From Fidelibacterota bacterium (GTDB lineage Bacteria > Fidelibacterota > Marinisomatia > Marinisomatales > TCS56): a stretch of 21,099 bases of DNA. Shown one piece after another: positions 1 to 19,620 of the stretch; the first letter of the stretch is position 1; each line of letters begins with the position of its first letter. The notes beneath the pieces were generated by a model, which was given only the letters and a program-made list of their open reading frames with translations, was not told the DNA's origin and did not search any database. Made by a program: the position numbers and the translations under genes. Location of the stretch: the NCBI GenBank assembly GCA_043822705.1, contig JBDRBK010000177.1, forward strand, positions 1 to 21,099. The letters run 5' to 3'.

Positions 1-295
1 GGATCAGCTCATAATCCAGCAGCGGCTCGACCCGGTTGGCGCCATAACCGCCGCGGGCACAGATAATCGCATCGACAGTGGGATCGGCGAACATTGCCAT
101 AATATCGGCCGCCCGTTCTTCCGGCGTTCCCGCATACAGGTTATTGCGCAGCAGGGGCGACTTACCCAGTTTGATTTTGAAGCCCCGTTTTTCCATGATT
201 TTAACGGTCTTGTCCAGTAATTCCTCTTTGAGCCAGTAGGATGGATTGATGATCCCGATGGTGGCCCCAGGTTTTAAGCGTGTTGGTTTCAGCAT
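1..295 (-). CDS. LD-carboxypeptidase, peptidase S66 (LdcA/MccF-like), N-terminal part; runs off the left edge
   Basis: Not in the ORF track. Manual translation from ATG at 295: MLKPTRLKPGATIGIINPSYWLKEELLDKTVKIMEKRGFKIKLGKSPLLRNNLYAGTPEERAADIMAMFADPTVDAIICARGGYGANRVEPLLDYELI. LKPG-TIGII-PS, AGT-EERA-D and ARGGYG are hallmark S66 motifs. GGAG RBS 5 nt upstream, 10 nt after the dacB stop, no signal peptide. The catalytic GYSD Ser lies outside the window. Confidence 0.88.
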   Translation of the reverse strand, partial: MLKPTRLKPGATIGIINPSYWLKEELLDKTVKIMEKRGFKIKLGKSPLLRNNLYAGTPEERAADIMAMFADPTVDAIICARGGYGANRVEPLLDYELI

Positions 296-305
296 GTTCA
301 CTCCG

Positions 306-1754
306 TTAGTAGGTTGCCAGAATTTTACCGATTTCATCCTGCAGGCGGCGATACGGTCGCGACGCACCCACATAGCCGTTCATCATGATTGAGAAGACCA
401 GTGGTTCCCCCCGACGACTGAAAGCGAATCCGGAAAGCGAACTGGCCCCCGACAAGGTGCCGGTCTTAGCCAGAATTTTCTCCCGGACTTCGTCCGCCTG
501 CATCCGTTCTTCCAACGTTCCGTCCACACCGGCTATCGGCAGTGCGTCCAGAAACACCTGGTTGAAATTTTCATTATGGTAGGCATAGGTCAGAGCCTTT
601 ATCAGTTGATCGGGGCTGGTCAGATTGTAGCGCGACACCCCCGAACCGTCGGCGATCCGGATTCCAGTGGTATCGATGCCGACTTCATTACTCAGAAATA
701 TTTTTACGGCGGTCAGTCCGTTCCGCCAGTTGCCCTGCTGACCGGTTTGCAGCATTCCGATCGTCTTAACCAGCAGTTCGCCGGTCAGATTGTCGCTGAC
801 CTTGAGGAAATTCTTCACAACTGCGGGCAGCGGTTCCGAAACATGATTGGCGATTACCGCATAGCCCTCGGGGATGCCGGTGATCACCGTCGGTCCGGTG
901 ACGGTTACGCCGTGCCTGGTCAGCATTTCCCGGAACACCTGACCGGTAAATCGGGCCGGCTGATCGATATTGCGGAAGAGCGTGTCCCTTTCCGCGTTCA
1001 CCAGCAATTCGCCGGTTATTTCCAGATTATTGGACCGTTCCCACCAGCGCCGCCGCACGGATAAATCCTGCAGATCGGTGGTGTCGTTAACGGTGACGGC
1101 CTGGTTGAAGACAGTTACGTAGCCCGTCGGCGGGTTGATCAGAATCCGTGGTGGAAGGCCTGTTGAATCCGGCGCAATATCGATATCGATGCAATTATCA
1201 TTCAGGGACATGGCGTCGATCTGGGCGGCGTACCATTCGTCGCCTTCGTCCCACATCCAGCCCTCGCCCCAGCGGGTCGAATCCAGTGTCGTATTGTCGA
1301 TAATCAGCGTATCGATAAAACTGATCATACCGGCGATGACAGCCGCCAGTGAATCCAGGCTTTTTAAACTCAGATCAGGGTCGCCGTCGCCCTTTAAAAC
1401 CAGCGCGCTGACCCGTGGCCGGTAGATTTCGGTACGCTTGATCCAAACCGTGGTCAGGAAACGGTAATCGGTTCCCAGGTAGTGTAGCGCCGCCACCGAC
1501 GAGTATATTTTATTATTACTGGCCGGTGTAAACAGATGATCGCTATTGAGCTGATACAGCGTTTTACCCGATTCCAGCGATACAACTTTTACGCCCAGAT
1601 TGGGGGCAATTCCCGATTTGTCGATAGCTTTTTTGATTGACCGGGAAAGCGGCGGATGTCCCTGGGCCTGATAAATCGCCGGAGATTGGGAGCAGCCGTT
1701 GAATAACAGAATACTAGTCAGAATAGTGTAAATCAGTGGTAGTAGTTTTTTCAT
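306..1754 (-). CDS. dacB: D-alanyl-D-alanine carboxypeptidase/endopeptidase, PBP4 (peptidase S13); probable lipoprotein
   Basis: All three PBP motifs: PASNNK (SxxK), SDN (SxN), AKTGTL (KTG). Also GDGDPDL and DGSGVSRYN, typical of S13. Hydrophobic N-terminal segment ending in a lipobox-like LFNGC. Confidence 0.93.
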   Translation of the reverse strand: MKKLLPLIYTILTSILLFNGCSQSPAIYQAQGHPPLSRSIKKAIDKSGIAPNLGVKVVSLESGKTLYQLNSDHLFTPASNNKIYSSVAALHYLGTDYRFLTTVWIKRTEIYRPRVSALVLKGDGDPDLSLKSLDSLAAVIAGMISFIDTLIIDNTTLDSTRWGEGWMWDEGDEWYAAQIDAMSLNDNCIDIDIAPDSTGLPPRILINPPTGYVTVFNQAVTVNDTTDLQDLSVRRRWWERSNNLEITGELLVNAERDTLFRNIDQPARFTGQVFREMLTRHGVTVTGPTVITGIPEGYAVIANHVSEPLPAVVKNFLKVSDNLTGELLVKTIGMLQTGQQGNWRNGLTAVKIFLSNEVGIDTTGIRIADGSGVSRYNLTSPDQLIKALTYAYHNENFNQVFLDALPIAGVDGTLEERMQADEVREKILAKTGTLSGASSLSGFAFSRRGEPLVFSIMMNGYVGASRPYRRLQDEIGKILATY

Positions 1755-1949
1755 ATCAGGTTTGGCTTTTGATTTATTGTGTTACCGTCAAGGTTAGAGT
1801 AGAACCACTATAATTTTCCCGAATAAATTCGGTGTCGGCGGAAATTCCCCCGGTAAACTGATTTTTACTGGCTGTAAAAACGGTAAACACGGACCGGAAA
1901 TTATTCTCCCGCGATAATCTTTGAAACGGAAAAGCCCAGTGAAAAGCAC

Positions 1950-3248
1950 TTACTTGGAAACTGGTTCGGAATATAGCTGGTATTTCTTGACCAGTGCCTG
2001 GTAGTCATCAGAAGTACTATCCTCCCAGGGCCAGGATATTGTACCACCGAGCTTCAGATTGTCGATTAACTCCGGTAACGTGTCCGATCCCCAGAGCCGG
2101 GCCAGGGTGCCGCGGTTGTATTCCAATTGTTCGGGGTACAGGGAGTGGATCGTCGCCAGTACCAAAACGCCGGTTGCAACACTGTTTAACACCGATCGGT
2201 CGGTCAGCAGGATTTCCACCCCGCCACAGTTCTGATTCTTGAACTTGGGATTATCCGACATGCCAGCGATACCGACCGGAGTGAAACGTATTGGTTTGAA
2301 AACGATGCCCGGCAGCTGCAAATCATTCAAGGCTTGCGCAAGCTTCTTTTCTTCGATCCAGGGTGCGCCGATCTTCTTGAATGGTTGATAGGTGCCACGG
2401 CCTTCATTGACATTGATACCTTCCACCAGGCACAGGCCGGGATAGATGATCGCTGTTTCCAGATCCGGAATATTGGGGGAAGGTTTGACCCAGGGCAGGC
2501 CGGTCTCGTCGTACCATAAGTTCGGTGACCAGCCCTGCATTGGAATAATTTCCAGTTGCGGCGTTCCCGTTATCCAGCCTTCACCGACGATCATCCGCGC
2601 CAGTTCGCCGACCGTCAGACCGTAGGCCACGGGGATCGGGTAGTAACCAACAAAGGACCGATAGGTCAGGTCCAGCAGCGGTCCCTCGATCCGATCGCCA
2701 CGAATCGGGTTGGGACGATCCAGCACCCAAACCGGTATGTTTTGTTCGGCGCCGGCTTCCAGTATCAGACCCAGAGTCGAGATATAGGTATAATAGCGGG
2801 CGCCGACATCCTGAATGTCATAGATTATCAGGTCGACCCCGGCCAGCATCTTGGCCGTTGGTTTGCGGTTCTGACCGTAGAGGCTGATTACCTGTGGTAA
2901 CTCTTCGATTGAATCATACTGCACTTGTTCGCCGGCGGCGGCTTCACCGAACAGTCCATGCTCGGGTGAGAAAATGACCTTCAGCCGGGTCGATTTTATA
3001 TTCATCAGTAAACGGTAATTAGGCGTACCTTGCTTATCAATACCGGAATTGTTGGTTACCAGGGCAATGTTGCGGCCCTTCAACCGTTCCGCTTGTTGAG
3101 TAATCAGAACGTCCAGACCGCTGAGTACGACCGCCGGTCGCGGAGTATCATTTCGGCCATATTTTTCCTGGTGTTCCTGATGGATTGATGGATGTTCCTG
3201 AGCCGGCAACAAGCCGGTCAGCAGCAGGGCAGTGATAATTATTTTCAT
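1950..3248 (-). CDS. namZ: DUF1343 / NamZ-family exo-beta-N-acetylmuramidase (YbbC-like, GH171), with signal peptide
   Basis: Family motifs IALVTNNSG, FSPEHG, SLYG, DIQDVGARYYTY, VLDRPNP, YGLTVGELA, WVKPSPNIP, EGRGT and GAPW. Signal peptide MKIIITALLLTGLLPA. Start overlaps the upstream stop (ATGA). Confidence 0.9.
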   Translation of the reverse strand: MKIIITALLLTGLLPAQEHPSIHQEHQEKYGRNDTPRPAVVLSGLDVLITQQAERLKGRNIALVTNNSGIDKQGTPNYRLLMNIKSTRLKVIFSPEHGLFGEAAAGEQVQYDSIEELPQVISLYGQNRKPTAKMLAGVDLIIYDIQDVGARYYTYISTLGLILEAGAEQNIPVWVLDRPNPIRGDRIEGPLLDLTYRSFVGYYPIPVAYGLTVGELARMIVGEGWITGTPQLEIIPMQGWSPNLWYDETGLPWVKPSPNIPDLETAIIYPGLCLVEGINVNEGRGTYQPFKKIGAPWIEEKKLAQALNDLQLPGIVFKPIRFTPVGIAGMSDNPKFKNQNCGGVEILLTDRSVLNSVATGVLVLATIHSLYPEQLEYNRGTLARLWGSDTLPELIDNLKLGGTISWPWEDSTSDDYQALVKKYQLYSEPVSK

Positions 3249-5683
3249 TTTAGCAGGGTGAATTTTTTAATGGTGATTTGATTGGTGTTATTCAGTACGG
3301 CCAGATAGACGCCGGTCGGTGCCGGTTTGCCGTCGGCCAGCAAAGCATTCCAGGTGAGTTCCCCTGAACCGCCGGTAGTCGGCAGATCGGTCATTGTGAC
3401 AACCGTTTGACCGAGGATATTGACGATCTGCAGCCGGGCGCCGTCAGCCAGATTCGGCAGGCGATAGGAAATATTGACGACGGTGTTGGACGGGTTAGGG
3501 TACACGGCGGTGATTCCGAATTGTTGCGGCAGGGGCGAGCCGACGTCGGTCCCGGTGTCGGCCAGAGTGAAGAAATCGAGGATTCGCTCCATTATCAAGT
3601 TACGGGTCGCTTCGGGATAGATCGTTTCGAAACCGAACGCCAGGTAGACTACCGCTCCGGTCATATTGCCACCGTCAAAGCTGCCCTGGTATTGAATACC
3701 GGCGCCGCCACGGGTAGCATAATCAACGCCCGTGTACCGCAGGCAGTCCGCAGCGCCGGCGGCGGGTTTGATGCCGTCGGGATAGTCGACATTATAGGTA
3801 CCCTGAGTGCCGTTATCAAAACTGAAACTACCGAGACCATCAAGACAGCTGCTGCTGACGGCGGTTGCGGAGTAACCGTCGCCGGCGGCATCGGTCAGGT
3901 ATTCCGCCTTCAGATAGCCGGAATAAAAATCCTGGTCGGCAGTACTGCCCTGGGCCACCAGATCGTAACCGATTTCCGAGCCGGACAAGAATAGCTGTCC
4001 GCCATATTTAAGATAATCCGCAACCAGCAGTTGTTCCTCGCCGGTGAAGGAACTGTTGGTAGCGCCTTCTTCGCCCAGAATCCAGTCGATGGCCGCATAA
4101 TCGGCCAGATTAACAAAACCATTGATGACGGACTCATTGCTGGCGGCATCGAAGGCCTGGCCGGTCGCCAGGATTGCCGTGCCATGTTGTCGAATGAAAT
4201 CCCGCGAGTTGTTGGTTCCCGACATCCGGTCGAATCCATTGATTACTAGAATCTGCGGTACATCCGCGACTGGCACCACACCCAGCAGTTCAGTCACAGG
4301 GCTGTCGCCGAAATCGTTGGAGGCATAAATTTTTAAAAAATAGCATTGATTCAAGTCCAGCCCGTTCAACACCAGCGGCCGCTGGGAAAGGACAGCCAGT
4401 GTGTCGATCGTGGTTTGATCGGCATAAGCCCTCAGAACCGTGAAATTGTCGGCGTTCTCGGCCCCGCTGAACTGAATCGCAATCGAACCACCACCGATAT
4501 TGTTGATCGATAAATTTTCCGGCGTCAGCGGCGGCGTGGTGGCGCCAAATTTGGCCTGGAGGGCTGACCATAACTTGGAACTGGAGCCATCATAACCCAA
4601 CGCCCACATACCGACACCGCCCAGATCCTTATCCAGGGCCAGATCATACTTCAGGGAAAGCGACAGACTGTCATCGTACCAGACTTGGTACCAGCTGCCG
4701 GACTGATAAGCGATCCAGGGCGTCTGGGTAGTAGCATACCAGTCACTGCCATAAGTCAGCGCCAGGGCCTCGGCTTCAGCATAAAAAGGTGATCCGATAT
4801 AACTGAGCACCGTCGAACCGGGCGTATCGCCGGCAGTCTGCCATTTGCGTCCGTAATAGGGAACACCGAGCATCAGTTTATCGGTCTTGCCGCCGGTTTT
4901 AGTGATATAATCGTTGACCGACCAGGTTATATTATAAGTATAACCGGTCAGGGGCGCTACCGGGCCGGTAGTTTCGCTCCAACTACCGAAAAAGTCGTAG
5001 CCCATGATGAACAGACCGTCACTGACGGTGGCCAGGGCGTTGTAATCCCATTTATCGCTCCAGTCGACCGCCGGCATCGCCAGCGTAACCTGGGAACCGG
5101 GAATCTGGTTGTGAAAAGCGCTGGTCAGGTCGGTGATGAACTGGACCATATTGGCTTTCTGTCCGGCTGGAAACGCCTCGAAATCGATATTAACACCGTC
5201 GCCGTTACCGCTTTTCACCAGGGCGATCAGGTTATTGATCAGATTCTGACGGTAGGTCGGGCTGCTCAGCAGGGTGGTTAATGCCGTGCCATCGAACAGG
5301 GTCACGCACAGCACGACGTCGACGCCGTTGGAATGGGCCAGGTTGATCAGACCGGCATCCGGCCAGCCATTGTAATTGGTGACTGATCCGGTGGCGGTGG
5401 CGCCGACGCTGAACCAGGCAATCGTTGTTAACAGATTGTAATTATAATTCTCCCAGGCGCGGCCGCTCCAGTAGGGATGATAGCCGAAGATTTTATGGCT
5501 GGGCGCGGATGACCTTTGCAGCTTCGGCAGCAGTGGAGCGGTGACCTGCGGCCGGTCCTCGGCAATATAACGATCGGCATAAAATTCCGCCTGCTGCTGG
5601 TGAATGCTTTTAAATGGTTGCCCCGCCAACAGGCCGAGACAGACAACCGGAATCAGGATCGTTTTAGTAAAGGCATTTGGCAT
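3245..5683 (-). CDS. Secreted multidomain GH18 glycoside hydrolase: GH18 + FN3-like + alpha/beta module + C-terminal sorting (T9SS-A/FlgD-like) domain
   Basis: GH18 motifs GYHPYW, DGVNIDFE, FIMGYDF, LGVPYYG, QVWYDD and GVGMWALGYD. C-terminus YPNPSN...IVNILGQ...W...G...PTGVYL...KKFTLLK. ATG at 5683 preferred over GTG at 5704 because it gives a normal signal peptide. Overlaps the lysA end by 20 nt. Confidence 0.85.
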   Translation of the reverse strand: MPNAFTKTILIPVVCLGLLAGQPFKSIHQQQAEFYADRYIAEDRPQVTAPLLPKLQRSSAPSHKIFGYHPYWSGRAWENYNYNLLTTIAWFSVGATATGSVTNYNGWPDAGLINLAHSNGVDVVLCVTLFDGTALTTLLSSPTYRQNLINNLIALVKSGNGDGVNIDFEAFPAGQKANMVQFITDLTSAFHNQIPGSQVTLAMPAVDWSDKWDYNALATVSDGLFIMGYDFFGSWSETTGPVAPLTGYTYNITWSVNDYITKTGGKTDKLMLGVPYYGRKWQTAGDTPGSTVLSYIGSPFYAEAEALALTYGSDWYATTQTPWIAYQSGSWYQVWYDDSLSLSLKYDLALDKDLGGVGMWALGYDGSSSKLWSALQAKFGATTPPLTPENLSINNIGGGSIAIQFSGAENADNFTVLRAYADQTTIDTLAVLSQRPLVLNGLDLNQCYFLKIYASNDFGDSPVTELLGVVPVADVPQILVINGFDRMSGTNNSRDFIRQHGTAILATGQAFDAASNESVINGFVNLADYAAIDWILGEEGATNSSFTGEEQLLVADYLKYGGQLFLSGSEIGYDLVAQGSTADQDFYSGYLKAEYLTDAAGDGYSATAVSSSCLDGLGSFSFDNGTQGTYNVDYPDGIKPAAGAADCLRYTGVDYATRGGAGIQYQGSFDGGNMTGAVVYLAFGFETIYPEATRNLIMERILDFFTLADTGTDVGSPLPQQFGITAVYPNPSNTVVNISYRLPNLADGARLQIVNILGQTVVTMTDLPTTGGSGELTWNALLADGKPAPTGVYLAVLNNTNQITIKKFTLLK

Positions 5684-6920
5684 AGATATCTTCGATCGTC
5701 TCACGGTTGCGGATCAGTCGGGGACCGGCGTCGGTCAGCAGTACTTCCGCGGCGCGCGGGCGGGAATTCAGCTGCTGCGACATGGCGAAACCATAGGCGC
5801 CGGCATCCATGATGGCGATCAGGTCGCCTTCGGCGACGGTCGGGAAGGGCCGGTCGATAGCCTGGCGGTCGGTGTTTTCACAAATCTGGCCGGTAAAATC
5901 GACGGTGCCGGCGGCGGCCTCCGCGGTTGCCCCGACTTTGTAGAAACGATGATGGGCGTCGTACAATGCCGGTCGCAGGATCGTTTCCATGCCGGCGTTG
6001 AGACCGACAAAAGTCCGGTAGCTCTGCTTGAGGCCGGTGACCGTTGCCAGTATAAAACCGGTATCGCCGACGATATATTTGCCGGGTTCGAGCCACAGGG
6101 CCGGACAGTCCGGCGCTTCCTGGTCATAACTGGCATGGAAGACCTGGCCCAACTCGGTCATTACCCGGTCGATCGGAATGGTCTGCTGATCGTCGCGATA
6201 GGGGATGCCGATCCCGCCGCCGATGGAAATATATTCCATGTCCATGCCCAGTTCGCTTTTCAATTCTTTGGCGACATCAATCAACGCCTGCAGCAGTTGC
6301 GGAAAATATTGGTCATCGAGGACACCGGAGCCGGTCATGGCTTGCAGGCCAAAGCGTTTTATACCTAACGATTGAGCACGGCAATAGGCGTCAATGATTA
6401 GATGTCGGGGTACGCCGAACTTGGCTTTTTCGCCGCCGGTGGTGATCTGGGAAAACATACCCTTGCCGAAACCGGGATTGAGCCGGAAAGACACCCGCGG
6501 TGGCAGTCCGATCCGGGCCAATCGTTCCAGGGAAGAAATATCATCAAGATTGATGTTGATGCCGGATTCGATGGCGTAGATCAGGTCGCCGGGCGATTCA
6601 AAGTTGCCGGTATAGATACTGTCACTGGTGGCGATGCCGGCCAGCCGGGTGGCATGAATTTCACCGGGACTGGCGCAATCGGTGCCCAGAGTCGGGAGAA
6701 ATCCATGCATGGCGGCAATCAGGGCCGGATTGCAGTTGGCCTTGACGGCGTAACAGATATGATATTTGGTGAAATTATTTTTCAGGGCGCGGTCCAGGCG
6801 CAGCAGATTGGTCTGCAGACGACCGGCGGAATAAACATAGAGCGGTGTTCCATATTCGGCGGCAAGACTTGACAGCAGCACTTTGTCGTCGATCAAATCG
6901 AGCAGGGGATGTTTGTTCAT
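5664..6920 (-). CDS. lysA: Diaminopimelate decarboxylase (PLP fold-type III), divergent motifs
   Basis: YGTPLYVY, YAVKAN (PLP lysine), RLNPG, TG..KAKFG, IGGGIG, EPGK, RPALY, GQICENTD, DAGAYG and NSRPR. Confidence 0.85.
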   Translation of the reverse strand: MNKHPLLDLIDDKVLLSSLAAEYGTPLYVYSAGRLQTNLLRLDRALKNNFTKYHICYAVKANCNPALIAAMHGFLPTLGTDCASPGEIHATRLAGIATSDSIYTGNFESPGDLIYAIESGININLDDISSLERLARIGLPPRVSFRLNPGFGKGMFSQITTGGEKAKFGVPRHLIIDAYCRAQSLGIKRFGLQAMTGSGVLDDQYFPQLLQALIDVAKELKSELGMDMEYISIGGGIGIPYRDDQQTIPIDRVMTELGQVFHASYDQEAPDCPALWLEPGKYIVGDTGFILATVTGLKQSYRTFVGLNAGMETILRPALYDAHHRFYKVGATAEAAAGTVDFTGQICENTDRQAIDRPFPTVAEGDLIAIMDAGAYGFAMSQQLNSRPRAAEVLLTDAGPRLIRNRETIEDIYAKCLY

Positions 6921-6993
6921 TCGTCTAAAATCCTGTTGTATTGTTTTTTCTAAATTCGGGCCGTATTGCCGGTTGAAGTTACATTCGGTTGGA

Positions 6994-8157
6994 TTATTTG
7001 ATGATTGTCATTTTACACGTCGCGCCGTATCGTCCGGACGACAGGCGGCAGATATAGACACCGGCCGGTTGATCGCCGGCATACCAGATCACTGACTTGA
7101 GTCCCGGTCCCTGGACGACATCGACCAGCATGGCAACCGGGCGGCCCAGCAGATCGTAGATACGCATCGTGATGTGGCCGGTCATTTTAAGTTCGTAGTC
7201 AATTCGGGTGCTGGGATTGAACGGATTCGGATAATTCTGACGCAAACTGAATAATTCGGGGAGCAAAGTGGTTGCGACGACACCGCCGGTCTCCTCGAGA
7301 CCCAGGTAATCGCCGATACCGTGCAGAATGGCATTAGCGCTGGAATCATACATGCCGGCCGCGGCATTGTTCATGTCTTCGTAGGTCAGGGCCAGAACGG
7401 CTGCCCCGTGATTCAGCCAGAACCAGCTCTCGGGATAATAATCGGGCGTGATACTGGTCCAGGTGACGGTATGATCCCAGGATGCGATACCGGAAGGGAA
7501 ATATCCCTGGACGGCAGCGATAAATGCCTGTTCCATTTGAGCATAAACGGCGGAAGTGCCATTTGCATGATGGAAAACAAAATACCGTTGGGTCGCTGCA
7601 TATGCTGAATGCATGTTCAAGGCGATTTCGATTGGCGCGTCTGAGGACATTAATTCTTCAAAACGTTTTTTCAGCGCAGCCGGCTCCGGTTGCAGCGGAA
7701 CATCGGCCCAGTTGCTTTCGATGTCGATGCCGTTGGCATTCTGGCGATCATAGCCCAGTTCAACGCCGTCCGGATTGTACATCGGGATGATATAAAATGT
7801 ACACTGGCGGCGCAGGAGTCGGGCGAATGGGTCGTCGGCGATCAATTGGGCGATGATCTGCTCGGTGACCCGGAAAGACTGAAATTCGTTGGGGTGGGTC
7901 CGGGTGTGAATGTAAACGGTATGCCGGGGAACAGAGGGGGGAGTGGTATCGGTGATCGTCAATTCCCAGAGTGCCCGGTTTTGAACCGAGGCGCCGATGG
8001 AATCGACCGTGACCCAGGGACTGGCATTCCAGCTAACCAGATCGTTCAGCAGGTCGTTGTATCCGTAGCCCCAGTTGGCGGCCGCTACGGAAATATTAAC
8101 GGTGAACAACAGACCGAATATTAAAACCCGATACAGGCGTGGTATTTTTGATTTCAT
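6994..8157 (-). CDS. Secreted M14-family zinc peptidase with C-terminal sorting (T9SS-A-like) domain
   Basis: IGASVQNRAL, HPNE (HxxE zinc ligands), IIPMYNPDG, RQNANGID, LNMHS (third ligand) and LTYE (catalytic Glu). C-terminus LRQNYPNPFNPST...IYDLLGR...AGVYICRL...KMTIIK. Signal peptide at the N-terminus. Confidence 0.85.
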   Translation of the reverse strand: MKSKIPRLYRVLIFGLLFTVNISVAAANWGYGYNDLLNDLVSWNASPWVTVDSIGASVQNRALWELTITDTTPPSVPRHTVYIHTRTHPNEFQSFRVTEQIIAQLIADDPFARLLRRQCTFYIIPMYNPDGVELGYDRQNANGIDIESNWADVPLQPEPAALKKRFEELMSSDAPIEIALNMHSAYAATQRYFVFHHANGTSAVYAQMEQAFIAAVQGYFPSGIASWDHTVTWTSITPDYYPESWFWLNHGAAVLALTYEDMNNAAAGMYDSSANAILHGIGDYLGLEETGGVVATTLLPELFSLRQNYPNPFNPSTRIDYELKMTGHITMRIYDLLGRPVAMLVDVVQGPGLKSVIWYAGDQPAGVYICRLSSGRYGATCKMTIIK

Positions 8158-8309
8158 AAAAGAATACTTTCTTCAGCAGGTTTCGGGTTCCGGCTACCCG
8201 CTGAAAATTAGCGGTATGGGCATCAACATCCAATGGTCTATTCGTGATTGTTTTGTGTATTTTCATGTACCTGTCAAAGTCGGTATGATACTAAATTAAG
8301 CCCAGCACC

Positions 8310-9662
8310 ATGGATGTACTACTATTATCACGCCTGCAATTCGCCGTCACCATCGGCTTTCATTACATTTATCCGCCGCTCAGTATCGGTCTGGGTGTCC
8401 TGCTGGTCCTGATGGAAGCACTGTACCTGCGCACCGGAAACCAGCTCTATCACCAGATGAGCCGTTTCTGGGTCCGGATATTCGGTCTTACGTTTGCGGT
8501 CGGAGTGGCCACCGGGATTGTGATGGAATTCGAATTCGGGACCAACTGGTCGGCCTATTCCCGTTATGTGGGGGACATTTTCGGCAGCGCTCTGGCGGCG
8601 GAGGGTGTGTTCGCCTTTTTCCTGGAATCCGGTTTCCTGGCGATTCTGCTTTTCGGCTGGGACAAAGTGTCGCCGAAATTCCATTTTTTTTCGACCGTAA
8701 TGGTAGCCCTGGGAGCGCATTTCAGCGCTGTCTGGATCATCGTTGCCAACAGTTGGCAGCAAACACCGGCCGGTTATCATATCGTCGGTGAAGGACTGAC
8801 CGCCCGGGCGGAAATCACCGATTTCTGGGCGATGGTATTCAATCCGTCCACGGTCGACCGCCTGACCCATACCATCATGGGGGCCTGGCAGGCCGGGGCT
8901 TTCCTGGTCATCAGTGTGGCGGCCTGGTACCTGCTGAACAACCGCCATCGGGAATTTGCGCTGGCCAGCCTGCGCCTGGGACTGGCCGTTGCGGTCGTCG
9001 CTTCCCTGGGGCAATTGCTGACCGGCCATTCCGCCGCGCAGATGGTCGCCGAACAGCAACCGGCCAAACTGGCGGCTTTCGAAGGACATTACGACGCGGC
9101 GGCTCCCGGCGATATGTATCTGCTGGGCTGGGTGGATGAGCAGCGGGAGCAGGTGACCGGTATTAAAGTGCCCGGCATGCTGAGCTGGCTGATTTATGGT
9201 GATCCCGCCCGGCCGGTGACCGGGTTACGCCAGTTTACGGCAGCCGACCGACCGCCGGTAAACCTGGTTTTTCAGGCCTACCATTTGATGATCATTTGCG
9301 GTATGGCACTAATTGGCATCAGCCTGATCGGTTCCTGGTATTTTATCAGAAAAACCCTGGGTAATCAACGCTGGCTGTTGCTGATCCTGGTCGCCAGCGT
9401 CCTGTTGCCGCAGATCGCCAACCAGTTAGGCTGGCTGGCCGCCGAAGTTGGTCGGCAACCGTGGATTGTCTATAATCTTCTGCGCACCGCCGAAGGCCTG
9501 TCACCGGTGGTCAGTGCCCCGATGGTGCTGACATCGTTGATTTTGTTTTCCCTGATTTATCTATTGCTGTTCGTCCTGTTTCTATTCCTGCTGAACCGAA
9601 AAATCCAACACGGTCCTACCACAGAGGATTTGATCCGATCAACACAAGGGGCCGACCGGTGA
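8310..9662 (+). CDS. cydA: Cytochrome bd quinol oxidase subunit I (short Q-loop type)
   Basis: [54 protein letters not shown] and [12 protein letters not shown]. The Q-loop is about 80 aa. Confidence 0.97.
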
Positions 9663-10681
9663 TTCCCGACCTTAATACAATCTGGTTTTTCCTGGTAGGC
9701 ATCCTGTTCACCGGTTACGCCATTCTGGACGGCTTCGACCTCGGAATCGGCGCCCTGCACCTGTTCACCCGCGGCGACGATGAACGCCGGACCATGATCA
9801 ATTCCATCGGGCCGGTCTGGGACGGCAATGAAGTTTGGCTGATTACCGGCGGCGGCGCCCTGTTCGCCGCTTTTCCGGAGGCCTACGCTACGGTATTCTC
9901 GGGATTTTATCTGGCATTCATCCTGCTGCTGTTTTCGCTGATATTCCGGGCGATCGCGATCGAATTTCGCAGCAAACTGCCGCAGCTCTGGTGGCGTCGG
10001 TTATGGGATATCTGTTTCAGCGCCGGCAGCATCATGAGCGCCTTTCTGATCGGCCTGACGTTGGGCAATCTGATCCGCGGGATACCGCTTGACAGTCGAC
10101 ATGAGTTTGTAGGCAGCTTCATTGGATTGTTGAGTCCGTATGCCATAGCTGTAGGAATAACTACAGTTGCACTGTTTATGATGCATGGTTCTATTTATGG
10201 CGTACTGAAAACGGAAGGGGCCATTCAGGAAAAGATACTTGGCTGGGCAAAGAATACCGTTCTATTTTTTATAATCTGCTATGTTTTGATCACGGTGGTG
10301 ACACTGGTAGTCATGCCGCATTTCACCGAGCACATCCGTGCCAATCCCTGGCTGTTCACGATCGCCCTGCTGAATCTGCTGGCGATTGCCAATATACCGC
10401 GCCAGATTCACCGGGGACTGGTGTTCCGGGCTTTTCTCAGCTCAATCGCCAGCATCGCGGCCCTGATGCTGCTGTTCGGGATCGGGCTGTATCCCTATCT
10501 GGTGTACTCGCCCCAGGCGGTGGAAAACAGCCTGACGATCTACAACGCCGCTGCCAGCGAGCGGTCCCTGCGAATTATCCTGACGATCGCGCTGATCGGC
10601 ATGCCGCTGGTGGTCGCCTATACCGCCGGAATCTACTGGGTATTCCGCGGCAAAGTCCGGCTGGATGCCAACAGCTACTGA
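9659..10681 (+). CDS. cydB: Cytochrome bd quinol oxidase subunit II
   Basis: LDGFDLGIG, IGPVWDGNEVWL, GGALFAAFP, RAIAIEFR, LTIYNAAAS and YWVFRGK. GTG start overlaps the cydA stop (GTGA). Confidence 0.97.
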   Translation: MIPDLNTIWFFLVGILFTGYAILDGFDLGIGALHLFTRGDDERRTMINSIGPVWDGNEVWLITGGGALFAAFPEAYATVFSGFYLAFILLLFSLIFRAIAIEFRSKLPQLWWRRLWDICFSAGSIMSAFLIGLTLGNLIRGIPLDSRHEFVGSFIGLLSPYAIAVGITTVALFMMHGSIYGVLKTEGAIQEKILGWAKNTVLFFIICYVLITVVTLVVMPHFTEHIRANPWLFTIALLNLLAIANIPRQIHRGLVFRAFLSSIASIAALMLLFGIGLYPYLVYSPQAVENSLTIYNAAASERSLRIILTIALIGMPLVVAYTAGIYWVFRGKVRLDANSY

Positions 10682-10756
10682 TCTGGTGCCGACGATAGCA
10701 CAAGCACCGGATTGTGGCTGACAAAACGGCCGTGCCGGGGGATAATGGAGGCATGG

Positions 10757-13700
10757 TCACTGCGTTTTGGCGTTGCCGTTCGGTAGAGCCGTGACAGTAC
10801 TGAAATCACCTGCCAGATAGTTCAATACCGCCGCCATGACCGCATTACGGTCGCTGTCTTCTAAAATTGTTTCAAACGGAAAACCGAATACCACCACGCT
10901 ATAATCACCCTTATAGCCGACAGCGGCACCGTAATGGTTCTCATCGTAGCGGAGCAGAACCATGGATTGGTCCTTTATGGGAAGTAACGCATCGGGTGCT
11001 TCGACCGTGTAAAAATCAGGGTGGAACGTAGTATTGAAGGAAAAATCAAAAGCAAACGGCGCAAATGTCGTATCACTGGAAAAGACGCCACCGGTCCGCA
11101 CGGCCCGATCGCGCAGCAGGCGGAACTTCAGCCGGTCACGTATAAAGGCTTTGTCGGCCGGAACGCTGTTTTCGGACGACAGAATATCGGAGGCTACATG
11201 AGCGCCGGACACGAACAATCGACCGCCGGCGGCCAGGTACCCGGAGAGCTGGCTTTGCAGACGATCGGGGAAGGTTTTGAATTCCCGACCGTACTTGCGA
11301 TTACCGAAATCCTGGGGCCAGTCGGTTTCCCGTTCTTCACCCAGTATCAGATCGACCGCCAGATACCGACCCGGATCGACCAGACTGTCCATAACCGCTT
11401 CATCGCTGACGGATACGAAACCGTAACCGGCCGCCCGGATGGCCGCACCGTGAACCGCACTGAAATCATGGGTATTCCCGCGGACAATCCGTGTCTCGAA
11501 ATCGGAATCGCTGGCTCCGTGGCCGGGAGCGATATTTGAAATAAAGGTCGAGGCTGGATTGAAATCGTACTGCTTACCAGTATAGCTCAGATCAAAATTA
11601 TCGGCGACTCCGTTATCCAGATCTGAAAAACCGGCTGAACCGACTGAATTAACAACTACCGCTGGCGCCACACGGTCGAAACCGTTGATAATCAGGATGG
11701 CCGCCGAATCGCTTTCGGTCCGGCAGACTGTCAGCACCTCGGATGGGAAGCTGACTCCGCCGGCATTGACCGCCCGTACCTGGAATCCGTATACCACACC
11801 TGGTTCCAACTCATTAACAATATATTCCGGCTGGGCCGTCGGTCGGCCGTTGTCGAAAGCGTCCGTGCCGCGGCGACTGTACACGATATAACCGGTGGAC
11901 ATCGCGGTCGGCTCCAGCGGATCGCTGGCTGGGCGCCAGCGGAGAATAACACCGCTCCGGTCGTAAAATTCCGTCCGGAAATGTGTTACCGGCAACGGTT
12001 GCACTACGTAATCGCGCTCGTACTGGGTGGCGATAAATTTGAGGATCGCCTTGTAAATCGACCGGCCGGCGTCGAATTTGAAACGCGGATCGTTGGCGCA
12101 GCGCATATCGCTGAAATTCTGGTGGGACAGCAGTTCGATCAGGACCGCCGGTACATTCGGGCGATAGGCCTCGCTGTAATAGGAATTCATCAAGGCCCGG
12201 CGCGGCCACAGCGGATCGTATTTTAGCCGGATGTCGTTCACGATCTGGGTCTGCATGATGTCGGCCAGGTCGCGGTTGGCCAGCCGCGACATTCCGTCAG
12301 GGAACATCAAACTGGAATCCGTATCTTCGTAACTGTAGATCGCCAGGGTACCGATCGCCTGGTTGTTAGCGGTAATGCCGGCATCGGTGTGAAACGCCAG
12401 GGACACATCCACCGGAATCCCCAGTCCGGCGGCCGAACGATCCCGATTCGGGCCGTAAGGTGCTCCCCGTAGATAATTGACCCACTCGCCCCGGGATTGA
12501 TAATCATCGGTGTAATCGAGGGTGTCGGCATGGAGGTTGTAGACCAGCGTATCGTGAATTCCGGCATATTGCAGGTAATAGCGCGCCGCTTCCAGATACC
12601 GCGGCCGGCGGCTGATCTGTCCGGCGCGGGCCACATCGCCCATACCACCACCGAATTTGACGGCATCGGCCGAGATGATTTTACCGGCCTCGGCGCTGCG
12701 GTTGGTCAGCACTACTTTCCCGGAGTCGGGATGCCGGCCGGCGGCGAACTGAAATTTTCCCAGGTAGATCCAGGTACCACCGCCGATTTGCTGGTTCACC
12801 GAAAATTCGGTTTTCCCGCCCTGGTGATAAACAGTATAATGGGCGTCGTGAATGGCACTGTCACCGGATTGATAAGCAATCTGCACCGAATACCAGCCTG
12901 ACTCGGGGATGTCCGGAATCCATTCGGCAGTAGCACTGGCAGTGGTGTCGGCGTCGATCACCCGCTGCGTGCCCAGCAAGAAGGGGTTTACACCCGGCCC
13001 GTAGGGAGGTTGTCCCACGGCAAATGCGCTGTCGGGTGCAGTCCGCCAGACAGGTCCATCGACTGCTGTTTTCTCGGAATAAACACCGGCTGTCATCGGT
13101 GAATCATTGTCGATAAGCACTTCGTTCACCTGGGTATCCCGTTCCCGGGGGGTGAATACGGTGGCACCGGCATTTTCCAGCATCGGAATCAGGTAATTCA
13201 GGGTAAAAGTCATCGGCAGGATGTCCTCCACCGTTTGAAACAGGCGCGGGCGCTGCCAAGACCAGTGACCTTCCTGGTTGTTGTAGTACCAACCGTGACT
13301 GTGCCAGAGTGCTATTACGTTATCGGTGAGGCCGGCCGTTGGCTGAAAACCACGGTCCAGGTTCGTCGCGACCGCCGGCGGACGTTCTTGCACGGCTCCT
13401 GGTTTGCGCCGGTTATCGGCAGTTCCACCCTGGCGGTAAATATTTGGAATCAGGTTTTCGATCGGTTCACCCAGCGAGCACAGCGTCAATCGGTAATTAC
13501 GATAACGCCAGCCCAGCGATCGGCGATAAAGATCATGAATAACGGCTGTATTTTTGGCTCGAAATGGAACGTAGGAAAAATGTTTGCTGAAATTGACTTC
13601 GATCGTTCTGGCCTGCCGGTTGACGGTTATTTCCTGGATGCTGACATCCTTCAAATACTGGGGAGGGATTTGTCCGTCGACGCCCGATTTCAGGAATACC

Positions 13701-13831
13701 GCGGTTTTTTTATAGACTTTGCGGGTCGGTCGATCTAATTCCTTGAAGCCCGGATCGTTTTTCACCAAATTGATATTGGTGCATCCGCAGAGCAACGCCA
13801 CGACGGGTAACAGTATGGTAGAAGATTTCAT
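10757..13831 (-). CDS. Multidomain lipoprotein: Amidase_3-like zinc domain interrupted by a golvesin/CBM-like beta domain, then FN3 and an alpha/beta module (family often auto-labelled 'xanthan lyase')
   Basis: ATG at 13831 gives MKSSTILLPVVALLCGC (lipobox). Amidase_3-like ligand pattern: LWHSHG, FQTVED, LENAGATVFTPRE, LAFHTDA, PAVLIELLSH. Insert IDND...GWYSV...VNQQIGGGTWIYLG.F...ADAVKF. FN3 motifs LRW.P, GYIVY and LEPGVVYGFQVRAVNAGG.S..SE. Confidence 0.78.
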   Translation of the reverse strand: MKSSTILLPVVALLCGCTNINLVKNDPGFKELDRPTRKVYKKTAVFLKSGVDGQIPPQYLKDVSIQEITVNRQARTIEVNFSKHFSYVPFRAKNTAVIHDLYRRSLGWRYRNYRLTLCSLGEPIENLIPNIYRQGGTADNRRKPGAVQERPPAVATNLDRGFQPTAGLTDNVIALWHSHGWYYNNQEGHWSWQRPRLFQTVEDILPMTFTLNYLIPMLENAGATVFTPRERDTQVNEVLIDNDSPMTAGVYSEKTAVDGPVWRTAPDSAFAVGQPPYGPGVNPFLLGTQRVIDADTTASATAEWIPDIPESGWYSVQIAYQSGDSAIHDAHYTVYHQGGKTEFSVNQQIGGGTWIYLGKFQFAAGRHPDSGKVVLTNRSAEAGKIISADAVKFGGGMGDVARAGQISRRPRYLEAARYYLQYAGIHDTLVYNLHADTLDYTDDYQSRGEWVNYLRGAPYGPNRDRSAAGLGIPVDVSLAFHTDAGITANNQAIGTLAIYSYEDTDSSLMFPDGMSRLANRDLADIMQTQIVNDIRLKYDPLWPRRALMNSYYSEAYRPNVPAVLIELLSHQNFSDMRCANDPRFKFDAGRSIYKAILKFIATQYERDYVVQPLPVTHFRTEFYDRSGVILRWRPASDPLEPTAMSTGYIVYSRRGTDAFDNGRPTAQPEYIVNELEPGVVYGFQVRAVNAGGVSFPSEVLTVCRTESDSAAILIINGFDRVAPAVVVNSVGSAGFSDLDNGVADNFDLSYTGKQYDFNPASTFISNIAPGHGASDSDFETRIVRGNTHDFSAVHGAAIRAAGYGFVSVSDEAVMDSLVDPGRYLAVDLILGEERETDWPQDFGNRKYGREFKTFPDRLQSQLSGYLAAGGRLFVSGAHVASDILSSENSVPADKAFIRDRLKFRLLRDRAVRTGGVFSSDTTFAPFAFDFSFNTTFHPDFYTVEAPDALLPIKDQSMVLLRYDENHYGAAVGYKGDYSVVVFGFPFETILEDSDRNAVMAAVLNYLAGDFSTVTALPNGNAKTQ

Positions 13832-14063: not shown

Positions 14064-16004
14064 TTGAAGCTGCAGAATAAATCATTTCTGGGATTGTCGG
14101 TCATATTCATTTTATTGGCATTTATCGTCGGTATGGCCGGTTATTTCTGGGTCAATTACAACACTATTCAGGCCGCTGAAGAACGGGTCAGTCTCTACAT
14201 GCGCAACAGTTGGGCCATCTACTGGAACAAGGCTGAGCATTTGCAGACCTCCGCTGAAATCATGGCGGAAAAGCAGTCGATCCGGGAATTATTGAAACAT
14301 CCCGGCGATTCGGAATTGTCCCAGGCGATCGGCAATGAGCTGAAAGAGCTGCGCGAACGGACTGGTATCGACATCATTACGCTGCTCGATACTACTGCGC
14401 GGGTGCTGATCAATACCCAGTACCCCTTTCGGACGGGATTCGAAATGAAAGACGATCCGCTGGTCCGCCAGGTGCTGCGGGAACGGCGGAGCACCAGCGG
14501 CACGGTCATATTCGACCGCCAATTGTTAGGCCAGTTGGGTCCGGCCCTGGCGGAGCGCTGCGGCCTGTGCGGGGACGGCCAGAATGGCATGGTATTGGCG
14601 ACTGTTGTGCCTGTCAGCGAAAATGGTAAAGTTATCGGTCTGTTGCAGTTGGGCGGCCTGCTGAACGGTTCTACCGATAAAGTTGATCGAATCCGCGATG
14701 CTGTTTTTGCCAATGAAATTTACCGTGACAAACCTTTGGGCACGGCTACGATTTTCATGGGTGACCGGCGGATTTCGACTAATGTTGCCGGACCGGACGG
14801 GGACCGGGCCCTGGGAACCAGGGTATCGCCCGAAGTTGCCGAAAAAGTTCTGCGGCAGGGCGAATCCTGGACCGGCCGCGCCTGGGTCGTCGACACCTGG
14901 TATCTTTCACGATATGACCCGATACGGAACCCCGACGGAACCGTGATCGGTATTTTGTACGTCGGCGAACTGGAACAGAAATACCTCGATCTGCGCCAAA
15001 AAACATTGATCGTACTGATCGGAATAATCCTGTTGGTGATGATCCTGGCACTCGCCGTATTTTATTTCATCAATCGCGGCATACTGAATCCGCTGCAACG
15101 CCTGCTGGTAGCTACTCGACGCCTGGCCGGCGGTGATTTCAGTCATGAGATCGAACTGGCGGCTAACGACGAAATCGGCCTGCTGACCGAATCATTTAAC
15201 AGTATGACACGGCAATTGCACGACCAGCAAACAAAGATACTGGAACAGCAGCAAAAACTGGAACAGTCCAACCGGGACCTGCAGACGACCAACCACAATT
15301 ATATGGAAATGCTGGGGTTCGTCAGTCACGAACTGAAAAATCCGTTGGCTTCCGCCACAATGAGTCTGCATACGGTAAAAGACGGCTACCTGGGTGTGCT
15401 GAATCCGGCCCAGGAAAAATCATTGACGATGGTGGGAAAAAGCCTGGATTATTTCAGTGATATGATAACCAATTATCTGGATCTGTCACGCCTGGAAAAG
15501 GGTGAACTGCGAACCCGCATCAAGCCTGTTCCGATTAACAAGGAAGTGCTCGAACCGGTAATCGATGGTCTGCGTCGGGGAATGGAGGAAAAGGGCTATA
15601 AATTTTCCAACCTGGTAGATGACGACCTGACTCTGGTGACAGATCGCGATCTGCTGAAAATCGTATTTGATAATCTGCTGTCGAATGCAATTAAATACGG
15701 CCGGGAAGGCGGCAGGATCGATTTCACCGTCGAACGGACCGCTTCGGGCGTCAGTTTAAGTGTTTACAATGAAGGTGAAGGTATCGAGCCGGAGAAGATA
15801 TCACAACTGTTTCAGAAATTCAGCCGACTGGACAACAAAGCCTATTCCGGCAAGAAGGGCACCGGGTTGGGGTTGTACATCTGTCGGGAAATCGTCAATA
15901 AATTAGGGGGCCGGATCAATGTGGAATCGAAGGTCGGCCAATGGACCAGATTTGTCGTAACACTGCCGGTAAACTCAGAGGAGAATCATAATGAAAACCG
16001 CTAA
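14064..16004 (+). CDS. Membrane sensor histidine kinase (periplasmic Cache domains, HAMP, HisKA, HATPase)
   Basis: Two transmembrane helices. Cache-type ATIFMGDRRISTNV...RALGT...YDPI...IGILYVG. HAMP PLQRL...DEIGLL..SFNSM. H-box SHELKNPL, N-box NLLSNAIKY, G-boxes GEGI and GTGLGL. TTG start is uncertain. Confidence 0.93.
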   Translation: MKLQNKSFLGLSVIFILLAFIVGMAGYFWVNYNTIQAAEERVSLYMRNSWAIYWNKAEHLQTSAEIMAEKQSIRELLKHPGDSELSQAIGNELKELRERTGIDIITLLDTTARVLINTQYPFRTGFEMKDDPLVRQVLRERRSTSGTVIFDRQLLGQLGPALAERCGLCGDGQNGMVLATVVPVSENGKVIGLLQLGGLLNGSTDKVDRIRDAVFANEIYRDKPLGTATIFMGDRRISTNVAGPDGDRALGTRVSPEVAEKVLRQGESWTGRAWVVDTWYLSRYDPIRNPDGTVIGILYVGELEQKYLDLRQKTLIVLIGIILLVMILALAVFYFINRGILNPLQRLLVATRRLAGGDFSHEIELAANDEIGLLTESFNSMTRQLHDQQTKILEQQQKLEQSNRDLQTTNHNYMEMLGFVSHELKNPLASATMSLHTVKDGYLGVLNPAQEKSLTMVGKSLDYFSDMITNYLDLSRLEKGELRTRIKPVPINKEVLEPVIDGLRRGMEEKGYKFSNLVDDDLTLVTDRDLLKIVFDNLLSNAIKYGREGGRIDFTVERTASGVSLSVYNEGEGIEPEKISQLFQKFSRLDNKAYSGKKGTGLGLYICREIVNKLGGRINVESKVGQWTRFVVTLPVNSEENHNENR

Positions 16005-16386
16005 ACATATTCTGATCATAGATGACGATGTGCAACTGGTCGATTCAGTTCAAACCTTGCTGGAAAGTGTCGGCTATTCCGTTTCATTTGCCTATCAGCA
16101 GGAAGCCGGTATCCGGCTGGCCAAGGAGTTGAAACCCGACCTGATATTACTGGATGTTATGTTTGCCGGTCCACCAGGACCGGATGGTTTCGAAGTATCG
16201 CGGATATTTCATCAGAATATTGAGTTGAAAGAAATCCCGATAATAATGTTGTCCGGCGTTCGCCGGGCTCTGGACCTGCCGTTCCTGCTGAGTCCGGATG
16301 AAACCTGGATGCCCGTTCGGGCCTTTTTGGAAAAACCGGTCAAACCGGAGGTCTTATTGAATAAGATCAAGGAAGTTCTGGCCTGA
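15991..16386 (+). CDS. Single-domain response regulator (receiver only)
   Basis: ILIIDDD, PDLILLDV (phospho-Asp), IIMLS and LEKP. GAGGAG RBS upstream. Overlaps the kinase end. Confidence 0.93.
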   Translation: MKTAKHILIIDDDVQLVDSVQTLLESVGYSVSFAYQQEAGIRLAKELKPDLILLDVMFAGPPGPDGFEVSRIFHQNIELKEIPIIMLSGVRRALDLPFLLSPDETWMPVRAFLEKPVKPEVLLNKIKEVLA

Positions 16387-16512
16387 TATTTTTACCCGTC
16401 CGAATGGTCTCGGCTGCCGAGAATTGCTGCGGTCGCACACTGAGTATTTTATTTATTTTGTCTAAATAACGGGATATTTTCACCGGTAGAAATCAACCGG
16501 GGACCAGCTTAA

Positions 16513-17526: not shown

Positions 17527-17531
17527 TTAAC

Positions 17532-17556
17532 GGGGGTGACCTTGTCGATCACCCCC
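17532..17556. terminator. GC-rich hairpin between convergent genes, probable (bidirectional) terminator
   Basis: GGGGGTGA-N9-TCACCCCC is a perfect 8-bp stem in the 41-nt gap between two stop codons, flanked by AT-rich runs. There is no clean U-tract on either strand. Confidence 0.6.
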
Positions 17557-17567
17557 CGATAAAAAAT

Positions 17568-18263: not shown

Positions 18264-18558
18264 CAACAGTGCATCCTTTCATCCGCAAAAATCGAATGGC
18301 CGATCAACTCACGTCCGCTGATCGATCGCATCCAATTTTGGCGATCGTTTGTAATCAGTAAATAATTATAAAAATCGCTTTTCGCCGTGCGATTCAATGA
18401 TTAAATCTCCGGGTAAACAGGCGATGAATCAAAATACTATCTGGCTGATTGCGAATCAGCTGGTGGCAGTGGTCTGCACAACCGCCGGGAGTCCTGTTTC
18501 TTCTATCGCTTCGCAGGCCGTAATATTAACAGTTGATTAATAACAGATGAGGATGGTT

Positions 18559-19575: not shown

Positions 19576-19620
19576 ATCGGCAAGAGTGATAATTCGGGAC
19601 ACCGGTCGGGCTAATTCGAT

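Follow-up and report, generated by a model that had tools for sequence, protein, structure and literature searches.

A lysA-led run of cell wall hydrolase genes in a Marinisomatales bacterium and its probable role in the salvage of foreign diaminopimelate

Gene content of the lysA locus

The DNA analyzed here, referred to as the window, is a stretch of 21,099 nucleotides (nt) from a Fidelibacterota bacterium of the order Marinisomatales (GenBank assembly GCA_043822705.1), and it is the whole of contig JBDRBK010000177.1 (C177) of a 3.34 Mb bin that is 93% complete and 6% contaminated. The subject is a minus-strand run that starts with lysA, the gene for diaminopimelate (DAP) decarboxylase (5664-6920; TIGR01048), and continues with genes for peptidoglycan hydrolases. 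lysA, which belongs to a subfamily with Met in place of a conserved His, is followed by a gene for a glycoside hydrolase of family 18 (GH18; 3245-5683; PF00704) that carries an fn3-like and glutamine-amidotransferase-like accessory module and a sorting domain of the type IX secretion system (T9SS) type (PF18962). The run then proceeds to namZ (1950-3248; PF07075 and PF20732), of the exo-beta-N-acetylmuramidase family (GH171), to dacB (306-1754; TIGR00666 over cut-off), for an S13 (PBP4-type) DD-carboxy/endopeptidase and probable lipoprotein that is part of the core in many lineages, and to the 5' part of a gene for an S66 LD-carboxypeptidase (<1-295; PF02016). lysA overlaps the GH18 gene by 20 nt and the GH18 gene overlaps namZ by 4 nt, while gaps of 195 nt and 10 nt separate namZ from dacB and dacB from the S66 gene; these coordinates agree with an earlier note on this DNA, which had described the three overlapping genes and the 10-nt spacing.

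The first 141 nt of the window are identical to contig C167, which carries the remainder of the S66 gene and, after it, two Gate-domain (PF07670) genes (L195:825-1998) that we take to be spmA/spmB-like. The claim that no transporter is encoded holds within the window, but the locus continues into these membrane genes on C167. A similar pair follows dacB in a genome of family f21 (L289), and its position after dacB/S66 here and after dacB there hints at transport of wall fragments.

In terms of sequence motifs, DacB has S79xxK, S320xN and K430TG, the Ser-Glu-His triad of S66 is present (motifs read from C167), the catalytic motifs of LysA are also intact, and NamZ and GH18 retain their conserved motifs. 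Among the targeting signals proposed, the sorting domain of GH18 was matched, as was that of the M14 peptidase encoded upstream of lysA, although the M14 tail (20.3 bits) lies below the Pfam cut-off of 27 and at the TIGR04183 cut-off. The lipobox-like Cys of DacB (FNGC, non-canonical) and of an upstream amidase (LCGC), and the signal peptide of NamZ, were seen by eye only. About 72 protein ends in the genome resemble sorting domains, and SprA, the T9SS core part searched, was found in 5/5 genomes tested, which indicates a putative T9SS-like export route.

Conservation of gene order

Gene order was compared in the best 80 of 121 lysA loci, whose titles are mostly Marinimicrobia/Fidelibacterota or uncultured bacteria, with one labelled Marinisomatales; related genomes among them are not independent samples. 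Across these loci namZ was found in 51, GH18 in 49, dacB in 30, S66 in 9, spmA in 8 and M14 in 3, and the amidase and cydAB in 0 each. In the 74 loci that remain after removal of 6 with less than 700 nt downstream of lysA, 63 have a wall-hydrolase family within 5 kb of lysA, and in 57 the start of GH18, of its accessory-domain protein or of NamZ is no more than 400 nt from lysA, so the linkage that the earlier note left to a synteny comparison is conserved. The overlaps recur as well, in 35 of 37 called lysA/GH18 pairs and 27 of 28 called GH18/namZ pairs. Both lysA and a close GH18 are present in 26 of 61 genomes of the order, and they are adjacent by coordinates in 24 of those 26. As a control, such a neighbour within 1.5 kb was found in 1 of 30 top-scoring lysA loci, almost all of which belong to different families within the phylum. 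Other recurrent neighbours of lysA are an AmiA-like amidase (20 loci), GH20 (14), PorV (12), a sodium symporter (11), Amidase_2 with a sorting domain (8) and TonB receptors. Two loci titled archaeon and Winogradskyella (L088 and L156) hold a Marinimicrobia-type lysA with the same neighbours and are probably misbinned or mislabelled.

Because genomes of close kin are not independent, stronger evidence of conservation comes from f21, a family of the same class. Its lysA is just 28-31% identical to that of the window and has the textbook HxHxGS motif, and it is placed between S66 and GH18; one f21 genome also has dacB and spmAB alongside. The conserved core is lysA-GH18-namZ-dacB-S66, continuing to the spmA/spmB-like genes, and it is both smaller than the unit that had been proposed and shifted relative to it. 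This conserved unit is real and likely functional, and lysA-GH18-namZ-dacB-S66-spmAB likely forms one operon. A scan for promoters and terminators was uninformative (15 versus 12.7 and 19 versus 16.0 in shuffled sequence).

LysA and the synthesis of DAP

The LysA protein scored 329 bits against TIGR01048 (cut-off 297.9), and alignment to solved DAP decarboxylases located the Schiff-base Lys, the EPG motif, the Cys-Glu pair, the substrate Arg and Tyr, and the Tyr of the GAY motif. Residues K60, R316, Y320, C347, E348 and Y376 are invariant in 24/24 aligned sequences. The textbook HxHxGS motif is replaced by QCMTGS or QAMTGS, and the Tyr of the C-terminal NYN motif by Leu384. The Met that replaces the His stacking on pyridoxal phosphate also occurs in a sister LysA clade, in which 4/5 genomes carry dapB. 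In a tree of 39 rows (51 minus 12 near-duplicate rows from family f30; long-branch warnings were issued), the window clade has LysA of families f27/f29 as its sister group (support 96/92), and a single clade of window and f21 LysA was rejected (approximately unbiased test, p 0.032). Orthologs of at least 48% identity are present in 37/61 genomes. LysA is predicted to decarboxylate DAP, which most likely comes from foreign walls.

DapB_C was matched in 0/61 genomes of the order and in 0/210 genomes of families f1-f23. It is present in 29/276 genomes of the phylum, all in families f24-f30 (29/66 of f24-f31), and where dapB occurs, dapA accompanies it. DapB_N exceeded its cut-off in 0/5 near-closed genomes. 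DapA-family matches were found in 11/61 genomes, and 9/9 of those tested fell below the DapA cut-off while 3/3 controls were above it; the DapA-family protein of this genome (contig C119) was rejected as DapA at 122 bits versus a cut-off of 206, and its YNxPxR motif lacks the Arg. In this genome neither Ddh nor LysX exceeded its cut-off, and queries for dapB, dapD, dapH and ddh from the same phylum gave no match. E. coli queries missed asd though Pfam found it, and misses with such queries for nagA, mppA, murP and dapD are weak negatives. DapL, for which no search was made, would need DapA and DapB upstream. DapF occurs in 6/61 genomes, all in the window's family, and was rejected as a sign of biosynthesis, since it is confined to these genomes and none of the 6 loci read has dap genes next to it. 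This genome has lysC-asd-thrB-thrC, so that only the lysine branch is missing. No complete route to DAP was found (DapA, DapB, Ddh and LysX negative; DapL not searched), and of the two findings that the earlier note had set jointly against its own proposal, a complete DAP pathway and an unlinked lysA, neither was observed.

Elsewhere in the phylum, family f30 has lysA in 21/21 genomes and dapB in 1/21, and its lysA sits among unrelated genes. The lysA of f30 and f31 (L203-L225) is of the textbook type, and most f30 copies lie, as judged by eye, between a glycine-cleavage P subunit-like gene and a RidA-like gene.

GH18, its accessory module and NamZ

The GH18 protein has a DGVNIDFE-type catalytic motif (DxDxE type), present in 46/47 clustered orthologs, and close homologs (at least 53% identity) occur in 28/61 genomes. 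Its nearest solved structures are 4wiw and YdhD (3cz8), next several chitinases, and it ranks YaaH (E 1e-11) and the SleL-type 4s3j (E 8e-10) below these. GH18 enzymes of the SleL/YaaH type are characterised by LysM domains, and a Pfam search matched none in the window GH18. A SleL-type assignment is thus upheld by the catalytic motif but not by LysM domains or by closest similarity, and a role in peptidoglycan breakdown is inferred because the gene overlaps namZ.

The accessory module of GH18 (residues 392-720; window 3524-4510) combines fn3 and glutamine-amidotransferase-like parts with invariant acidic residues and belongs to an unnamed family. It recurs in the window amidase and on contigs C82, C9 and C202, where several of the proteins are of the Amidase_3 family, and it follows lysA without a GH18 domain in loci L147 and L149. 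A structural model of the domain (predicted local distance difference test score 88) resembled, by Foldseek, the glutamine-amidotransferase-like domains of GH42 and IFT52 (template modeling scores 0.37-0.50). An Atlas search returned no named family, and the fold comparison gave no function.

NamZ has both domains of the NamZ/GH171 family (NamZ_N E 1e-78; NamZ_C E 5e-41), and two further namZ genes lie elsewhere in the genome. NamZ is specific for N-acetylmuramic acid (MurNAc), requires MurNAc at the non-reducing end, and was assayed on a MurNAc-N-acetylglucosamine (GlcNAc) substrate that had been made using glucosaminidase and amidase (PMC8054146). No GH3/NagZ match was found in the genome, which fits a glucosaminidase-then-NamZ route.

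These results bear on the possibility that GH18 is a chitinase or chito-oligosaccharide enzyme, that the position of lysA was inherited without functional coupling, and that the LysA substrate may differ. In its favour, many chitinases are among the structural-sequence matches of GH18, chitin degradation is the annotated function of GH18 in SAR406 (PMC5596340), the genomes compared are relatives rather than independent samples, and the LysA residues are atypical. We nevertheless regard this explanation as highly improbable: the GH18/namZ overlap in nearly all called pairs ties GH18 to an enzyme specific for MurNAc (PMC8054146), the accessory domain is common to Amidase_3 proteins, and loci without GH18 have lysA joined directly to namZ. 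As for the LysA substrate, the sister clade, whose genomes mostly carry dapB, has the same Met in place of His.

The M14 peptidase, the amidase and neighbouring genes

Upstream of lysA on the minus strand lies the gene for an M14 zinc hydrolase with a sorting domain (6994-8157). Zinc ligands and catalytic Glu are intact (HPNE, MHS and YED), and IESN stands where the Asn-Arg motif is expected. In such carboxypeptidases the Asn-Arg pair binds the substrate carboxylate. ES or ER takes its place in 119/119 homologs that have the motif (120 read), which suggests a different substrate class for this subfamily; it is large (983 matches, with names including KSB1 and Calditrichia) and carries sorting domains. 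The nearest structures are cytosolic-carboxypeptidase-like M14s. Identification as MpaA was rejected, with no NF007897 match at E 0.01, 31% over 77 aa to E. coli MpaA and no Asn-Arg, and the signal peptide and sorting domain of the protein are contrary to MpaA. The MpaA-like step that the earlier note had assigned to this protein therefore failed on the MpaA model and the Asn-Arg motif, and the gene precedes lysA in just 3/80 loci; it is an accessory gene, limited to the closest relatives.

Next come the plus-strand genes cydA (8310-9662) and cydB (9659-10681), for a cytochrome bd oxidase (PF01654, PF02322 and TIGR00203), a pair unrelated to the hydrolase genes. cydA is divergent from M14, with 152 nt between them, and cydB is convergent with the amidase gene, with 75 nt between them. 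That gene (10757-13831, minus strand) encodes a lipoprotein with Golvesin_C, Amidase_3 (PF01520, E 9e-7) and fn3 domains and the accessory domain seen in GH18. Residues H177, E202, H481 and E566 are present, and the protein is a plausible amidase outside the conserved unit. Because cydAB lies between on the opposite strand, the amidase gene is unable to share a transcript with the other hydrolases. Its orthologs, found in 10/60 relatives, are on a contig different from that of lysA in 7/7 genomes having both. Open reading frames and profile searches recovered all seven minus-strand genes in the families that had been listed, but they do not form one run. A seven-gene unit was rejected on the intervening cydAB and on the lack of amidase linkage in all 80 lysA loci, about 40 of which (counted by eye) extend at least 7 kb upstream.

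The rest of the window (14064-21099) holds genes for a Cache/HAMP histidine kinase and single-domain response regulator, an FKBP, an M42 aminopeptidase, a 337 aa open reading frame without annotation (16513-17526, plus strand) and a patatin-POTRA protein truncated at the window end.

Steps encoded elsewhere in the genome

A true MpaA is encoded on contig C130 (250 versus a cut-off of 157), where a second S66 gene lies opposite MpaA together with a gene that by eye resembles glutamate racemase and has no Pfam match at 1e-5 (L194:627-3582). Contig C69 carries a YkfC ortholog (E 6e-71 to Bacteroides dipeptidyl-peptidase VI) beside an Ala-Glu epimerase gene, in a second wall-degradation cluster in which GH20, S13, Amidase_3 and GHL10 genes face this pair (L188:303-10028); YkfC-family genes were found in 3/5 other genomes tested. 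The enzymes likely to free DAP are the C130 MpaA and the C69 YkfC ortholog. An AmpG-like permease (162 bits, below the cut-off of 350) is encoded with SpoIID on C40, anmK and nagB are on C36, and murQ is on C133. A search of the genome with E. coli MurP gave no match, a weak negative. Orthologs of Mpl and MppA were also not found in the genome (a weak negative for MppA, searched with the E. coli protein), so that DAP would be freed rather than the tripeptide reused.

The wall of the cells

MurA is present in 59/61 genomes, including this one, and MurE exceeds its cut-off in 60/61. The DNPR motif, which binds the distal carboxyl of DAP (PMC3829189), was found in 42/42 MurE read (aligned to E. 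coli MurE), so the enzyme appears to be of the type that adds meso-DAP, although lanthionine or cystathionine remain compatible. Given this MurE and MurA and no known DAP route, the cells would need a dicarboxylic diamino acid without a known way of making one, and their own wall, too, may rely on DAP from foreign sources. Partial matches to the MurE model lie in open frames of about 940 aa in G013, G031, G039, G052 and G054; these are presumably cyanophycin synthetases, as expected from their size and pattern.

One alternative concerns the wall itself. The same scavenging operon could serve cells that make a thioether diamino acid, either cystathionine or lanthionine, for position 3 of their wall, with foreign DAP only a food and lysine source. 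A single cystathionine-beta-synthase (CBS)-like gene occurs in 56/61 genomes, including those of 1 Mb, and the small genome G056, described below, has no salvage gene matches, both of which would fit. The wall of Fusobacterium uses lanthionine, and E. coli is able to incorporate lanthionine or cystathionine (PMC12039745, PMC3091646). We consider such a wall unlikely, since the CBS-like gene adjoins a gamma-lyase-family gene in several genomes (the family was found in 5/5 genomes tested), an arrangement of ordinary transsulfuration, and DapF, a possible meso-lanthionine maker, occurs in only 6/61 genomes. A dedicated lanthionine synthase is not supported, because the gene matches CBS (E 3e-150) much better than it matches 5xem (E 1e-57), which we take to be the Fusobacterium lanthionine synthase. 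A thioether wall is compatible with scavenging by the lysA operon and alters only the need of the wall for foreign DAP. If the wall does hold cystathionine or lanthionine, an abundant clade would have an unusual wall chemistry.

Genome G056 (L239-L288), a single contig of 0.97 Mb, has murA, dcw genes and a DNPR MurE, and gave no match for lysC, asd, dapA/B/F, lysA, namZ, GH18, MpaA, YkfC, AmpG-like, S66, anmK or spmAB; lysA is present in 0/21 genomes of its family. It bears on a further alternative, that DAP synthesis in the order follows an unrecognised route of non-homologous enzymes, with lysA serving ordinary biosynthesis and the hydrolases mainly recycling the cells' own wall. DNPR MurE and MurA imply a DAP-like demand with or without salvage genes, and the lysA of f30, without dapB and away from hydrolases, would suit such a route. 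Against this, G056 lacks matches even for lysC and asd, the commonest neighbours of lysA include no recurring candidate for such a pathway, two lysA subfamilies occupy the same slot among hydrolases, sorting domains point to extracellular action, and the only member of the phylum in culture is unable to synthesise DAP or lysine (PMC11652737). We therefore consider an unrecognised route very unlikely.

Proposed pathway

We consider it probable that the lysA-led run breaks down foreign peptidoglycan, that the fragments are imported, that enzymes encoded elsewhere release DAP, and that LysA makes lysine from it in competition with MurE. The activities and the transport in this scheme are predicted from gene content, motifs, gene order and the absence of matches. 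Breakdown would occur outside the cell and in the periplasm. Exported GH18 would cut GlcNAc-MurNAc bonds and leave MurNAc at non-reducing ends, amidases encoded elsewhere would strip the stems, and NamZ would free MurNAc, which could enter metabolism through AnmK, MurQ and NagB, also encoded elsewhere. DacB and S66 would trim cross-links and terminal D-Ala to give the tripeptide, SpmAB may import the fragments, and the YkfC and MpaA encoded elsewhere would release DAP. In the window's family, DapF could convert the LL-DAP of other wall types. MurE of the DNPR type and LysA would share the freed DAP. As LysA drains the pool without a known internal source, net DAP input must be foreign, even with recycling of the cells' own wall, barring an unknown route. 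The proposal that foreign walls are dismantled and their DAP salvaged as lysine thus stands at its core, while its unit boundaries, its M14 step and the membership of the amidase do not.

Several observations weigh against this pathway. No wall hydrolase lies within 5 kb of lysA in 11/74 loci, and the orphan lysA of f30 does not need a hydrolase context. LysA is atypical at Gln193, Met195 and Leu384 relative to textbook motifs, and GH18 scores closer to YdhD and chitinases than to SleL/YaaH. The G056 genome, with MurE and without matches for synthesis or salvage, hints at uptake of free DAP, a different amino acid in the wall, or a route not yet known. The completeness and contamination of the bin also weigh on the reading.

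A broader proposal is that this aerobic and abundant SAR406 order is a DAP auxotroph that makes its own MurNAc and obtains both lysine and the cross-linking diamino acid for its wall from foreign walls, through a lysA-led secreted operon, with lysA captured twice. We hold this tentatively, at somewhat less than an even chance. If it is true, DAP released by others would sustain the streamlined members that lack the operon, dependence on foreign walls would reach beyond the anaerobic lineages to the majority of the phylum, which lives in the open ocean, and a missing growth factor for cultivation would be given. A large pool of the organic nitrogen in the sea is peptidoglycan, and little is known about the organisms that consume it. 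The locus names a candidate consumer in the aerobic SAR406, which are common and for the most part not in culture. Of interest among its products are the GH18 that lacks LysM and is paired with NamZ, the SpmAB pair as a candidate importer of fragments, and the unstudied M14 subfamily.

Comparison with known systems

Peptidoglycan degradation by SAR406 was predicted earlier from GH23, GH103 and CBM50, and GH18 was assigned to chitin (PMC5596340). A literature search returned no description of the locus, though the primary 2024 paper on Fidelibacter multiformis IA91 and its supplements, outside that search, may cover DAP genes. IA91 requires muropeptides from other bacteria and lacks the ability to synthesise MurNAc, D-Ala, D-Glu, DAP and lysine; its wall contains lysine, and anaerobic sub-lineages are said to have inherited the trait (PMC11652737). 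The present order is similar to IA91 in that it belongs to the same phylum, is predicted to live on wall fragments of other bacteria, and has no DAP or lysine synthesis in the searches made, which did not include a LysW-independent aminoadipate route. It differs in keeping MurA, so that, as judged from MurA across relatives, the loss of de novo MurNAc synthesis does not extend to it, and in its exported sorting-domain hydrolases in a lysA-led run, which the available portion of PMC11652737 does not mention for IA91.

The rescue operon of Bacillus subtilis (murQ-murR-murP-amiE-nagZ-namZ) is similar in the release of MurNAc by NamZ and its catabolism by MurQ (PMC8054146). In contrast, namZ is coupled here to GH18, PBP4, S66 and lysA, no NagZ/GH3 or MurP match was found in the genome, and murQ is on another contig. 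B. subtilis also makes its own DAP (a positive control for DapB). The stem catabolism of E. coli (MpaA/YcjG) and Bacillus (YkfC/YkfB) has its counterpart in the MpaA, YkfC and Ala-Glu epimerase of this genome (PMC2954226, PMC4600125), but here MpaA and YkfC are encoded outside the locus, and no ortholog of Mpl or MppA was found. Tannerella forsythia is likewise a bacterium of the Fibrobacteres-Chlorobi-Bacteroidetes group that is dependent on a wall building block from its neighbours (PMC6721243); the missing block is a sugar in that case, as a MurNAc auxotrophy, and would be a diamino acid in the order studied here.

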